Assembly (NCBI GenBank): GCA_964510585.1
Contig: CAZECW010000008.1
Coordinates: 1 to 17,126, forward strand
DNA from: an uncultured archaeon
GTDB lineage: Archaea > Asgardarchaeota > Jordiarchaeia > Jordiarchaeales > Jordiarchaeaceae
Length of the DNA: 17,126 nucleotides
Direction of reading: 5' to 3'
The position numbers and the translations under genes are program-made. The notes under the pieces were generated by a model. The model was not told where the DNA came from. It was given only the letters and a program-made list of their open reading frames with translations, and ran no database searches. The number at the start of each line of letters is the position of its first letter. Positions within the stretch are counted from its first letter, which is position 1. Below, piece after piece: positions 1 to 6,819 of this stretch.

Positions 1-366
1 GGACATTCGGGCGAACGCCAAAGGGGGGAGGAAGCTAAACAAGATGGTGCACAATTTCTGGAGCCACCACTATCTCTTGAAGCGCATCCGAGAGGTCTCT
101 GAAGAATATGGTATTCGAGTCGAGGTGGTGAACGAGCGTGGAACGTCGAGCCAGTGTCCCTGGTGTGGGAGCGGTGAAGTGATAAAGCGGGGCAGACTGC
201 TTAAGTGCAAGCAATGTGGGATTGAGGCGCACCGAGATGTGGCAGGGGCATTAAACATAGGTGCCGTCTATAACGGAGGGCACGTTAACTGGGCGATGGC
301 ACACCCATTGGAGGTTCAAATATGAGCTTCCAAGAATCCCCCGACTTTAGTCGCGGAGAGTGTCAA
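1..366 (+). mobile_element. IS200/IS605-family element, right part with right end
   Basis: After tnpB come GAAT (334-337), the hairpin TCCCCCGAC-TTTA-GTCGCGGAGA and terminal TCAA (363-366). This is the GAAT guide / TCAA cleavage-site layout known from IS608-type right ends. Confidence 0.9.
2..325 (+). CDS. tnpB: TnpB (IS200/IS605 OrfB) RNA-guided nuclease, 3' part; runs off the left edge
   Basis: The frame is open from base 2 (DIRANAKGGRKLNKMVHNFW...). It has VNERGTSSQCPWCG...LLKCKQCG (zinc ribbon) and HRDVAGALNI (RuvC-III Asp), and stops at TGA 323-325. Confidence 0.93.
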   Translation, partial: DIRANAKGGRKLNKMVHNFWSHHYLLKRIREVSEEYGIRVEVVNERGTSSQCPWCGSGEVIKRGRLLKCKQCGIEAHRDVAGALNIGAVYNGGHVNWAMAHPLEVQI

Positions 367-4417: not shown

Positions 4418-4978
4418 TTAGAATAATTCAGGTTTCTTCAGATGGAAATGGTACACGAATTGGCATACCGGATCTCCTCGGGATCGGCAGAGCACCTCAT
4501 TGCAGGTAACTGAATCTGCACCCCAATCCTCTAATCTGTGTTCTTCAATCCATTCCATGATTCCGGACAGTGTATTACACATAAACAATTGGGGTGATGG
4601 AGAAATCAAATCTTTACAGAGGGGACAGTCCGCTATAGTGTAGGTTATATGTACATCGCTTCCTTCTTTCTTAAATTCGGTTTTATCAAAAGTTGTTCCC
4701 GTGAAGAATTTGAATCCAAGATTATAAGCGGACTTGGGGTCAGCCAATTCTTCTAGACTTTTTGCGGGTCTCTGAGTTGCAGCTAGATATCTGGTATAGA
4801 TAAATTCACCCATGTCTCTCCCTATTTTTTTTAACTCTTGGTTAACTATTGCTGGATCCCTATGAATTTTCATAAAATAGCTAATTAGAGCTTGTACCAA
4901 GGATCTATAGACGAGTATGTTAATTTTTTCGGCTTTTATTCTCCAGGCTAGTACTCCTTTTACACCCAAATTTTTCAC
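4418..4978 (-). CDS. V4R-domain protein with Bet3/TRAPP-like features
   Basis: It has a V4R Cys pattern (DCPLC, MCN, EVLCRSRGDPVCQF) and the N-terminal helices VNQELKKIGRDMG. The GTG start overlaps the upstream stop (GTGA). Confidence 0.8.
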   Translation of the reverse strand: MKNLGVKGVLAWRIKAEKINILVYRSLVQALISYFMKIHRDPAIVNQELKKIGRDMGEFIYTRYLAATQRPAKSLEELADPKSAYNLGFKFFTGTTFDKTEFKKEGSDVHITYTIADCPLCKDLISPSPQLFMCNTLSGIMEWIEEHRLEDWGADSVTCNEVLCRSRGDPVCQFVYHFHLKKPELF

Positions 4979-5733
4979 CTCTTTATTTTTCTAAATCCTG
5001 AAACATATTTTATCGCTCCCTTTGCTCCAAAATCGCCGGTTGTTATCATTACTCGCGCTTTAGATATGCCAAGCTCCTCTGCTATATCATCAACAGTATG
5101 GTCGCCGTCACAGAGCTGGAGAATAGCTATCGCCATTGGTTCCTTTACCTTTTTCAAAATATTTTTGTCGACAAGTACGGGATAACTCACAGTTATGGTT
5201 ACTTCGGCTCCTCCTTCTTGGGAGGAGGACGCTAAAACTGGCTCGCTGGGTTTTTCTACCTCTATTTCCTCAGCGTAAGCCTCCTCTGGAATAGACTTGG
5301 CTATTTCAAGTTCTTCTGCTGCAGAAACTGCTTGCACAACTTTAAGAGGCGCCTCAGGAACTTTTTCGGCTACTGCTTTGACCTGCGGGGCGGGGAGCTC
5401 TTTTTCCAGCTCTTTGAACAAGTCCGTGTAATTCTCTTCTATGCGTTTACCAGCGACAATTAGAACCCCTTCCTTTTCATAGCTCTCTATAGCAAGGATT
5501 ATACGGGGAGAAGCCTTATAAATCAGTAGATTGCTTTTTGGCAACTTTTTAAGCTGGTAATCCCCCGGACTCCAAACTGGGAAAACTCTACTTAGCTGTT
5601 TGACGGCGGCCACAGATTCTGCCATAAGTGAAGAGTAGAGTATATTGCCACTATCATCTAGAAACGCCAAGTAACATTTCTTGGGCATAAACTTCGCAAT
5701 ATTTTCGGCGATTTCTTTAAATCTCTTCTCCAT
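4975..5733 (-). CDS. Roadblock/longin-like N-terminal domain, acidic linker and C-terminal winged helix
   Basis: Residues 1-110 show an alpha-beta-beta-alpha-beta-beta-beta-alpha hydrophobic pattern, followed by an E/A/P-rich linker. The C-terminus YPVL...ILQLCDGDHTVDDIAEELGISKARV is a wHTH. Confidence 0.65.
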   Translation of the reverse strand: MEKRFKEIAENIAKFMPKKCYLAFLDDSGNILYSSLMAESVAAVKQLSRVFPVWSPGDYQLKKLPKSNLLIYKASPRIILAIESYEKEGVLIVAGKRIEENYTDLFKELEKELPAPQVKAVAEKVPEAPLKVVQAVSAAEELEIAKSIPEEAYAEEIEVEKPSEPVLASSSQEGGAEVTITVSYPVLVDKNILKKVKEPMAIAILQLCDGDHTVDDIAEELGISKARVMITTGDFGAKGAIKYVSGFRKIKR

Positions 5734-5866
5734 GGTTACTGCCTGTCCAAATTTATGCTTTAGTATATATTAAAAATATTTAACATATTAAATCTTTTTG
5801 GAGCGCAAAATTCATAAAAAGACTCCAAAAAAGCAAAACCCCCAGCCTTCAGAAGTTCCCAACCTT

Positions 5867-6625
5867 TTAGCCGAAACCGTCCAGGAACGCCTTTACATTT
5901 TTACCCAAATCTCGATGATAGTATCCGCCTTCCAAGATTGCGAAGCGTCTCCCCGAACAAACTTTTTCTGAAAACTCCTTCACCATGGCGCCAATGGTTT
6001 TATAATCCTCGGTTTTCAATCGGCCTCCCCAGTCCAACTCATACTCATCAAAACCAGCGGAACATGCAACAATGTCACATCCTCGGGCAGCTTCAACCTT
6101 CAATTGCTCCGAAATTTCCTCCAAGTACTCTTTTCTACCGCCGTGATTCGGGTTAAGGATGGAAATTCCGGGTAGACCGCCAAGAATGTTCACTGTTCCA
6201 TCTCCAAAGTGTAAATCGAAGTCCAGAATAAACACTTTCTCAGCCTTACCCTCACTCCTAAGCTTCAAAATGGCAATAGCCATATTGTTAAAAAAGCAGA
6301 ACCCCCAGCAAGAGTCGCTAGAAGCGTGGTGACCGGGAGGACGAATCAAACCAAAAGCAGGCTCCCCACCATAACCGATTTCGGCAGCCATAATAGCGCC
6401 GCCAGCTGAAAGAGCTGCCACCTCATAAAGCCTCTTGTCACTTTTAATGGAATCAATGTGTCTCTGGGTATGAGCCCTCCTTATATCCTCCTCAGTGGCT
6501 GGTTTAGGCTCCACAAACTCAAAGTGCTTATAAAGGGCGTCATAAATACTCTCAATCCGCCCTGCCTTAGCCGCTGGGTCAGAAGCGTAAACAATTTTGT
6601 ACATTTCGTGGTAAACAATCTTCAA
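5867..6625 (-). CDS. Zn-dependent histone deacetylase-family (Rpd3/Hda1/AcuC superfamily) protein, compact; start TTG 6625, 6631 or 6643
   Basis: Motifs RPPGHHA, GFCFFNNMAIA, ILDFDLHFGDGT, SAGFD and LEGGY. GGAGGT lies upstream of the TTG codons at 6631 and 6625. Confidence 0.92.
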   Translation of the reverse strand: MKIVYHEMYKIVYASDPAAKAGRIESIYDALYKHFEFVEPKPATEEDIRRAHTQRHIDSIKSDKRLYEVAALSAGGAIMAAEIGYGGEPAFGLIRPPGHHASSDSCWGFCFFNNMAIAILKLRSEGKAEKVFILDFDLHFGDGTVNILGGLPGISILNPNHGGRKEYLEEISEQLKVEAARGCDIVACSAGFDEYELDWGGRLKTEDYKTIGAMVKEFSEKVCSGRRFAILEGGYYHRDLGKNVKAFLDGFG

Positions 6626-6819
6626 AGCCAACCCAACCTCCAAACCAACAAGTAAGCTCCCTTATGAATAGGACTATGAAGGTATTAAATTTTTGCGCCT
6701 GTTGAAAACATCTTAAAAATAGTTTCACCTTTTTTGCACTAGTTTGGTTACAGTTAGAAGGCGGGGTAGACACGGAAGTTTTTAGGGAAGGGAAAAGGTT
6801 TTATTTTTGGAAGGTAGCC

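Follow-up and report, generated by a model that had tools for sequence, protein, structure and literature searches.

We describe here a pair of adjacent genes from an uncultured Asgard archaeon of the family Jordiarchaeaceae, found in a stretch of 17,126 nucleotides of contig CAZECW010000008.1 (the window, to which coordinates refer unless another locus is named). The first gene encodes a protein of 252 residues, P0001, in which a predicted Roadblock domain is followed by an acidic linker and by a winged helix whose predicted fold is closest to those of NPRL3, Npr2 and NPRL2. The second gene, lying 5 nt further on and translationally coupled to the first, encodes a protein resembling the TRAPP subunit TRAPPC3/Bet3. 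The features of this locus are the following:

4975 to 5733, minus strand: gene of P0001 (Roadblock domain, acidic linker, NPRL-type winged helix), an open reading frame of 252 residues with its ATG at 5733 and its TGA at 4977-4975.
5389 to 5733, minus strand: Roadblock domain, residues 1-115, with the order alpha, beta-beta, alpha, beta-beta-beta, alpha in the AlphaFold2 model.
5209 to 5388, minus strand: disordered acidic linker rich in Glu, Ala and Pro, residues 116-175 (60 residues); the predicted local distance difference test score (pLDDT) is below 50 for residues 119-175.
4978 to 5208, minus strand: C-terminal winged helix with a basic tail (FRKIKR), residues 176-252, the wing made from the first and last strands.
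4975 to 4981, minus strand: Shine-Dalgarno-like GAGGTGA of the Bet3-like gene, placed over the final codons and stop of P0001, 5 nt before the TTG.
4418 to 4969, minus strand: TRAPPC3/Bet3-like (V4R-fold) protein of 183 residues with conserved cysteines, starting at a TTG at 4969.
5785 to 5799, minus strand: candidate promoter motif AAAAAGA-TTTAATAT, resembling a TFB recognition element (BRE) and TATA box, read from the sequence in an AT-rich region about 55 nt 5' of the ATG.

An earlier reading of the same DNA, made from its letters alone (the original prediction), had placed an open reading frame at 4975-5733 and quoted two protein strings from it, one starting with YPVL and the other being ILQLCDGDHTVDDIAEELGISKARVMITTGDFGAKGAI. 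The reading frame proved real, on the minus strand, and both strings are found in P0001. The proposed layout of an N-terminal alpha/beta module, a linker and a winged helix is likewise seen in the AlphaFold2 model and is the same in 25 homologues; the linker is acidic as claimed, but its length is 60 residues rather than about 65. It contains 13 Glu, with a net charge of -8 and a pI of 4.3, while both folded domains are mildly basic. The 25 homologues share 44-91% identity with P0001, and those with a named organism are all from Asgard archaea (Jordarchaeaceae, Freyarchaeota and Lokiarchaeia). They are annotated as hypothetical proteins throughout, except for one automatic RlmH label. Both folded domains are kept among them, save for the missing C-terminal domain of three short forms, and the linker differs in length as well as in sequence. 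Because the homologues share this layout with conserved folded domains, it is more than a chance juxtaposition.

The full-length model, built on the alignment of homologues, has a mean pLDDT of 77.8 and a predicted template modelling score of 0.72, and falls into three parts. In the N-terminal part, where means over blocks of ten residues are 90-96 up to residue 110, helices at residues 2-13, 38-53 and 88-110 alternate with strands at 20-26, 31-34, 59-63, 68-73 and 78-84. Its best structural match is the Roadblock domain of a Lokiarchaeal Roadblock-Longin protein (8yql_A), which VIA-align superposed with Z 13.7 and a root mean square deviation (rmsd) of 2.5 Å over 105 of 107 residues. LAMTOR2, MglB, the C-terminal domains of Rag and Gtr proteins and the Roadblock-like domains of Mon1-Ccz1, BLOC-3 and Fuzzy-Inturned follow at Z of about 10-11. 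The modelled domain has the fold that defines the Roadblock/LC7 superfamily (alpha-beta-beta-alpha-beta-beta-beta, with an N-terminal helix), and not the longin topology (beta-beta-alpha-beta-beta-beta-alpha-alpha, without such a helix). The helix of residues 2-13 belongs to the fold and superposes on Roadblock helix alpha-1; since this helix is included in the structural match, we assign the topology to Roadblock and not to longin. Of the "Roadblock/longin-like" domain that had been anticipated, the Roadblock half was therefore upheld, by the match to 8yql, and the longin half was not. A GAF, PAS or otherwise unrelated fold, the outcome that the original prediction had named as speaking against it, was rejected because all matches listed (the top 50 of Foldseek and the top 50 of VIA) are Roadblock/longin-type domains or NPRL2 chains.

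This assignment comes from structure. Pfam Robl_LC7 (PF03259) gives no match on P0001 even at E values up to 10, and PF03259, run over the entire genome, matched 17 other places, with the gene of P0001 not among them. Searches with the N-domain and with the whole protein against Pfam, NCBIfam and the PDB sequences returned nothing for the N-domain. Longins of the GTPase-activating type (NPRL2, FLCN, SMCR8) have a catalytic arginine finger and, immediately ahead of strand beta-2, a GP motif (PMC12290439). The GP motif is absent from the N-domain of P0001, in which the loop between beta-1 and beta-2 reads D-x-G-N, with a near-invariant G29 followed by N and not P; the sole Arg conserved in the alignment of homologues, R97, sits in helix alpha-3. 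The same genome holds a Roadblock-only paralogue of 132 residues, 40% identical to P0001 (G000:C191:17115-17444, L002), lying between paralogous genes of about 170 residues, as well as a second Roadblock-winged-helix protein of 253 residues and 25% identity (G000:C20:91011-91592, L003).

The C-terminal domain appears in the full-length model as a compact b-h-H1-H2-H3-b arrangement whose ten-residue blocks average about 94-98 as far as residue 240, and reaches a pLDDT of 90.3 when modelled alone. Used by itself in a Foldseek search of the PDB, it found as its top six matches chains of the GATOR1/SEA complex, mostly NPRL2 and Npr2. The chains of yeast Npr2 and human NPRL2 gave template modelling scores of 0.66-0.70 and rmsd of 1.9-2.0 Å, with 20-23% identity to human NPRL2; the next rank was taken by 3k9t, the founding structure of HTH_47. 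Whole P0001 also aligns to NPRL2 chains in Foldseek. With VIA-align, Z was 9.2 for NPRL3 and 8.4 for Npr2 over 70-71 of 81 residues, the best superpositions covering NPRL3 residues 258-334 and Npr2 residues 242-314. An exhaustive VIA search of 48,161 representative PDB chains, independent of Foldseek, returned Z of at least 8 only for NPRL3 (8.5) and Npr2 (8.4). HTH_47 (3k9t) scored 7.8 over 70 residues, and regulators of the MarR, AsnC and ArsR types scored 5.5-6.2 over only about 50-57 residues, which correspond to the three-helix core. The distinguishing trait of the P0001 domain is a wing built by its first and last strands, and its match to the NPRL2/NPRL3 fold extends over the whole domain, leading strand included. 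As Z is moderate for so small a domain, we regard this match as the closest likeness and not as proven homology. At the level of the predicted fold the NPRL2 likeness proposed in the original prediction is borne out, the top PDB matches of the lone model being NPRL3, Npr2 and NPRL2.

The fold comparison also bears on a very improbable alternative, according to which the C-terminal domain would be a peptide-recognition winged helix of the RRE/PqqD kind that presents a peptide or protein tail to a partner enzyme. P0001 gives weak PqqD matches (Pfam, E = 0.013; TIGR03859, E = 0.005), the RRE domains of TruD, LynD and PbtF superpose on the model with Z of 5.9-6.2, and HTH_47 has itself been proposed as a peptide-recognition module (PMC4000134). 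Those Z values are nevertheless below the ones of NPRL3, Npr2 and HTH_47, and the neighbourhoods examined contain no genes for ribosomally synthesized and post-translationally modified peptides or for modifying enzymes.

The winged-helix family is marked by the signature PVL-x-D, LKK-x-K and L-C-D-G-x-H-T-x-D-D-I-A. The Cys of its L-C-D-G segment (5110-5121, minus strand, residues 207-210) is kept in at least 90% of the family, next to an invariant Gly and often with a His at +4. An exhaustive phmmer search recovered 33 more distant relatives of P0001, many of them made of a Roadblock-like N-domain and one to three winged helices. Winged helices of these relatives that can be aligned to that of P0001 exceed the threshold of Pfam HTH_NPRL3 (PF24064, cut-off 27.2 bits) in P0042 (36.7 bits, E = 4e-9), P0041 (32.8 bits) and P0038 (29.2 bits). 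Nine relatives match HTH_47 (PF16221, cut-off 27.1 bits), several above the cut-off, with 42.9 bits for P0041, 35.3 for P0048 and 31.6 for P0047. P0001 itself gives no match to HTH_NPRL3, is missed as well when the genome is scanned with PF24064, and stays below the threshold of HTH_47 (17.2 and 18.7 bits). At the sequence level, the putative link from P0001 to HTH_NPRL3 would run only via its more distant relatives. Among these, P0042 found in the PDB sequences only designed helical repeat proteins and sirtuins, and no NPRL protein. Clusters of P0001 look-alikes in the ESM Atlas are mostly labelled Thorarchaeota.

Three of the larger proteins, of 560-615 residues (L055:1498-3342, L058:1213-2955 and L046:841-2517, all on the minus strand), carry one or two such winged helices and a C-terminal double zinc ribbon (Pfam DZR), and two of the three have a weak Roadblock-like start. 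In the sister family f2, a second Roadblock-winged-helix subfamily of 257-270 residues (L038:379-1347, plus strand; L037; L039) has as neighbour a gene with a gelsolin-like repeat (Pfam Gelsolin, E = 0.0023, below the cut-off).

The product of the downstream gene is, judged by its sequence, a zinc-cysteine protein closest to TRAPPC3/Bet3. Orthologues start with MGVKG at the same residues, and the cysteines C115, C118, C131, C161 and C169 (CPLC plus three) are invariant. Compared alone with Pfam, the protein matched V4R (E = 3.6e-5) and TRAPP (PF04051; E = 1e-4; 22.5 bits, cut-off 27), both below threshold. A profile of ten orthologues found in the PDB TRAPPC3 (E = 2.1e-8), yeast Bet3 (4.6e-5) and Thor-TRAPPC3 (1.6e-3), and no bacterial V4R protein was among its PDB matches.

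Adjacency of the two genes reaches well beyond the window. In a survey of 400 Asgard genomes a Bet3-like gene was present in 113, and at 24 of the 30 best loci a co-directional gene ending in this winged helix lies directly 5' of it. These 24 loci cover seven families (f1, f4, f6, f14, f24, f25 and f31). The complete genome of Freyarchaeum deiterrae has the pair at both of its paralogous loci, which share no other neighbours, and one of the two has two tandem Bet3-like genes; a metagenomic relative at 45% identity also has the pair. The exceptions are the genomes G005 and G290 and the sister family f2, where Bet3-like genes lack an adjacent winged helix and tandem pairs occur at four of six loci. 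Tandem pairs of Bet3-like paralogues were observed in several genomes (L014:6767-8017 of Freyarchaeum deiterrae, L072, L078 and L084). By analogy with TRAPP, in which several Bet3-family subunits occur, such pairs suggest that heterodimers may form.

The upstream partner is not the same in every family. In f31 it is a protein of 300-330 residues with two winged helices and an N-domain whose Roadblock-like secondary-structure pattern is read from sequence only; its last winged helix aligns to that of P0001 with an hhalign probability of 96.5%, the N-domains do not align, and the family profile matches nothing in the PDB sequences. In f14 the upstream protein, P0084 (L064:1336-1815, plus strand), has 160 residues and joins a small Cys-containing N-domain, not of the Roadblock type, to the winged helix seen in P0001, which shows that the pairing can do without a Roadblock domain. 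As far as sequence comparison goes, the constant elements of the pair across lineages are the winged helix and the Bet3-like gene. Structure prediction together with sequence searches documents the folds, the domain order, the coupling of the genes and their conservation across Asgard families. Structure prediction of a complex between P0001 and the Bet3-like protein gave a score of 0.00, which is no evidence either way.

We tentatively propose, at somewhat less than an even chance, that P0001 and the Bet3-like protein are the two subunits of an Asgard-conserved scaffold or regulator for small GTPases. The Roadblock domain would dimerise, as members of its superfamily do through the edge of the beta-sheet and helix alpha-2, and offer a platform for small GTPases, as in MglB, Ragulator, TRAPP (by its longin subunits) and the C-terminal domains of Rag proteins. 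The winged helix, of the NPRL2/NPRL3 (HTH_47-like) type, would be held on the acidic linker, a flexible tether of about 60 residues, and would act as a protein-docking adaptor and not as a DNA reader, joining the Bet3-like subunit to the platform. Together the two subunits might then scaffold or regulate one of the many small GTPases of the organism, as a GTPase-activating protein, a guanine nucleotide exchange factor or an effector platform. We infer that the Roadblock domain dimerises, that the Bet3-like protein and a GTPase are bound, and that DNA is not. The role of adaptor is suggested by the likeness to the C-terminal domains of NPRL2 and NPRL3, which make a large protein-protein contact surface in GATOR1 (PMC8534245). 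Two proposals of the original prediction, a GTPase-regulator architecture and a winged helix that may bind protein and not DNA, now gain support from context.

A connection to GTPases is also indicated by P0082 (L056:1678-3744, minus strand), a protein of 689 residues. It begins like a longin, continues with an Arf-like GTPase domain at residues 141-268 (Pfam Arf, E = 2.3e-21) and a proline-rich linker, and then has this winged helix at residues 497-557 (E = 2e-16 with the domain profile), ahead of a C-terminal coiled coil. This type of fusion was found in two independent assemblies. The same winged helix is joined to Roadblock domains in many other Asgard proteins, some of which combine a Roadblock domain with two winged helices and a double zinc ribbon.

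Several observations weigh against a GTPase scaffold, and part of them argue for a split transcription regulator similar to MsvR, an alternative that we consider unlikely, though clearly the strongest of those examined. In such a regulator the winged helix would bind DNA, the Roadblock domain would only dimerise, and the V4R-fold partner would sense a hydrophobic ligand or redox state through its zinc-cysteine site and modulate the binding. P0001 passes no Pfam threshold, and its best direct match is the ArsR domain HTH_5 (21.2 bits, cut-off 22), with TrmB and MarR behind. A profile of 30 winged-helix domains reached in the PDB sequences the DNA-binding archaeal regulators MJ223 (E = 5e-5) and Lrp/AsnC (E = 0.004-0.01) ahead of human NPRL2, which had only E = 0.16, over residues 190-237. 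The winged helix is mildly basic (pI of about 8-9) and ends in a basic tail. The Bet3-like partner matches V4R of Pfam and has a weak match to the V4R part of NCBIfam MsvR (NF053755; 19.4 bits, E = 7e-4), a model that does not match P0001. The classical role of V4R domains is to sense ligands in transcription regulators, the gene order of winged helix and then V4R equals the domain order of MsvR, and the unit kept across lineages is precisely this pair, f14 retaining the winged helix in the absence of a Roadblock domain. To these points are added the lack, in the N-domain, of the GP motif and of an identifiable arginine finger of the GAP-longins (PMC12290439), the lack of a small-GTPase gene in the window or beside any orthologue examined, the rarity of the GTPase-winged-helix fusion (two of 123 related long GTPases) and the source of all folds in predicted models. 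With only two carriers among these 123, the fusion was rejected as a general trait of long Asgard Arf-like GTPases.

Against the split regulator stand the structural matches over the full domain, which are to winged helices that do not bind DNA (NPRL2/3 and HTH_47), whereas classical regulators match only the core. The original prediction had named standard ArsR/MarR regulators as the result that would tell against an NPRL2-like domain; this did not hold by fold, while the sequence scores do lean towards ArsR HTH_5, MJ223 and Lrp/AsnC. The PDB matches of the partner's profile include TRAPPC3/Bet3 but no bacterial V4R protein, and the 19 bits of the partner with MsvR compare with a cut-off of 220 bits. 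To our knowledge, no transcription factor uses a Roadblock domain, which also counts against this alternative.

The upstream DNA adds weak evidence in the same direction. The BRE/TATA-like motif upstream of P0001 is inferred from sequence to be its promoter, and a block of the upstream region, AAAAGATTTAWTAT, is conserved in the upstream regions of diverged orthologues. No conserved operator-like palindrome was found in the promoter, the window having only AT-rich, low-complexity inverted repeats there; these are absent from three of four orthologous upstream regions, and the fourth (L018) has only a different, AT-rich one of 9 nt. Orthologous promoters thus share no conserved inverted repeat. 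No RNA run is listed for the locus among public runs, and its DNA occurs in metagenome runs from hot springs.

A scaffold unrelated to GTPases is a further alternative, which we hold to be improbable and distinctly less so than the peptide-recognition one. The Bet3-like protein would bind a lipid or another hydrophobic ligand, and the Roadblock-winged-helix protein would only oligomerise or localise it, for instance at the membrane by way of the basic tail. Models for such a function are TRAPPC3, which binds palmitate, and PoxR, which binds phenols. The invariant cysteines of the Bet3-like protein are consistent with it, as are the absence of a GTPase gene next to any of the loci examined and the cavities and zinc site of Thor-TRAPPC3, for which Tran et al. 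proposed ligand binding (PMC10933270). On the other hand, characterised systems connect Roadblock domains as well as NPRL-type winged helices with the regulation of GTPases, and P0082 carries this winged helix and an Arf-like GTPase in one chain.

Two other features of the window were considered:

5867 to 6643, minus strand: gene of the histone-deacetylase family, upstream of P0001, its position kept in orthologous loci of Jordarchaeia and Freyarchaeia.
2 to 325, plus strand: C-terminal fragment of a TnpB/Cas12f-like protein (Pfam Cas12f1-like_TNB, E = 2.5e-18), at the start of the window.

A functional link between P0001 and the histone-deacetylase-like gene was rejected because a promoter-like intergenic gap separates them and the neighbour is missing at paralogous and more distant loci. 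The TnpB/Cas12f-like fragment points to an insertion sequence element at the edge of the window.

Parts of this picture have precedents. Asgard genomes are rich in Roadblock, longin, small-GTPase and TRAPPC3-like genes; the Asgard expansions of Roadblock and longin domains are already published, and so are Asgard TRAPPC3-like proteins (PMC10933270). The latter study reports that Asgard genes for GTPases do not, as a rule, share operons with those for Roadblock, longin or TRAPPC3 proteins; the pair of P0001 and the Bet3-like gene is not mentioned in it. Since these genes are seldom in operons, partners among the proteins of the Asgard GTPase system are hard to guess (PMC10933270). Our literature search found no paper on a protein combining the Roadblock, as opposed to longin, topology with this winged helix, none on a Roadblock-winged-helix protein in Jordarchaeia or Freyarchaeia, and none on a conserved operon with a Bet3-like gene. 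The operon offers a small, easily expressed candidate complex that would unite parts of two eukaryotic machines of GTPase control. Such a complex bears on whether TRAPP-like or GATOR-like assemblies preceded eukaryotes, on the ligand of the NPRL-type winged helix and on the GTPase, if any, that is served. Should the pair be instead a transcription regulator, folds counted as eukaryotic signatures would perform ordinary prokaryotic signalling in Asgard archaea, which would affect how catalogues of signature proteins are read.

Among known systems, the subunits NPRL2 and NPRL3 (Npr2 and Npr3) of GATOR1/SEACIT resemble P0001 in having an N-domain of the Roadblock/longin superfamily followed by a winged helix. 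These two paralogues form a heterodimer that binds DEPDC5 and serves as a GTPase-activating protein of Rag GTPases. Their N-domain is a longin, whereas that of P0001 has the Roadblock topology, no GP motif and no identifiable arginine finger. They have a larger C-terminal region with at least two repeated winged helices (PMC3747258), in contrast with the single one of P0001, in which a disordered linker of 60 residues takes the place of the TINI/INT segments; P0001 is also below the Pfam HTH_NPRL3 threshold. Asgard "NPRL2-like" proteins with a longin and the NPRL2 C-terminal domain were described in Thor and some Loki genomes, under the asCOG name "NPRL2-like longin domain" (Liu et al., bioRxiv 10.1101/2020.10.19.343400). 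The f31 proteins and the Thorarchaeota-labelled relatives in the ESM Atlas may be this published family or superfamily; for the f31 relatives, the winged helix held in common with P0001 is the reason for considering it. The proteins of Jordarchaeia and Freyarchaeia differ as a lineage with a single winged helix, and the text of Liu et al. does not mention a link to a Bet3-like gene, the terms "TRAPP" and "V4R" not occurring in it.

The TRAPP core and our gene pair are alike in combining a Bet3-like protein with a member of the Roadblock/longin superfamily, and the tandem Bet3-like paralogues of some Asgard genomes recall Bet3, Trs31 and Trs33. We know of no winged helix in TRAPP. The Bet3-like partner differs from TRAPP subunits by retaining zinc cysteines of the V4R type, and the pairing described here is one of adjacent genes. 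It is conceivable, if rather speculative and a shade less probable than the ligand scaffold, that the operon preserves an ancestral arrangement of Roadblock/longin domain, NPRL winged helix and Bet3-like protein on a small GTPase, from which the TRAPP core and the NPRL2/NPRL3 pair would be two descendants, the winged helix having been lost in one and retained as an adaptor in the other.

HTH_47 (CA_C2195, PDB 3k9t), a circularly permuted winged helix, shares with P0001 a wing that includes the N-terminal strand; it was defined on a bacterial peptidase-like protein, and P0001 attains just 17-19 bits with it. The Roadblock fold is held in common with MglB, the LAMTOR subunits of Ragulator and CvnB. 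In the actinobacterial conservon, the Roadblock protein CvnB and the DUF742 protein CvnC are encoded beside a small GTPase. The likeness of P0001 to DUF742 amounts to just 13.9 bits and E = 0.048 (cut-off 27 bits, not passed), and no GTPase or histidine-kinase gene adjoins it. Finally, MsvR, the archaeal redox regulator made of a winged helix and a V4R domain, has a domain order that is the same as the gene order described here. It is nevertheless a single protein, whereas the proposed module of Jordarchaeia is split over two genes and has an additional Roadblock domain and linker that MsvR lacks.

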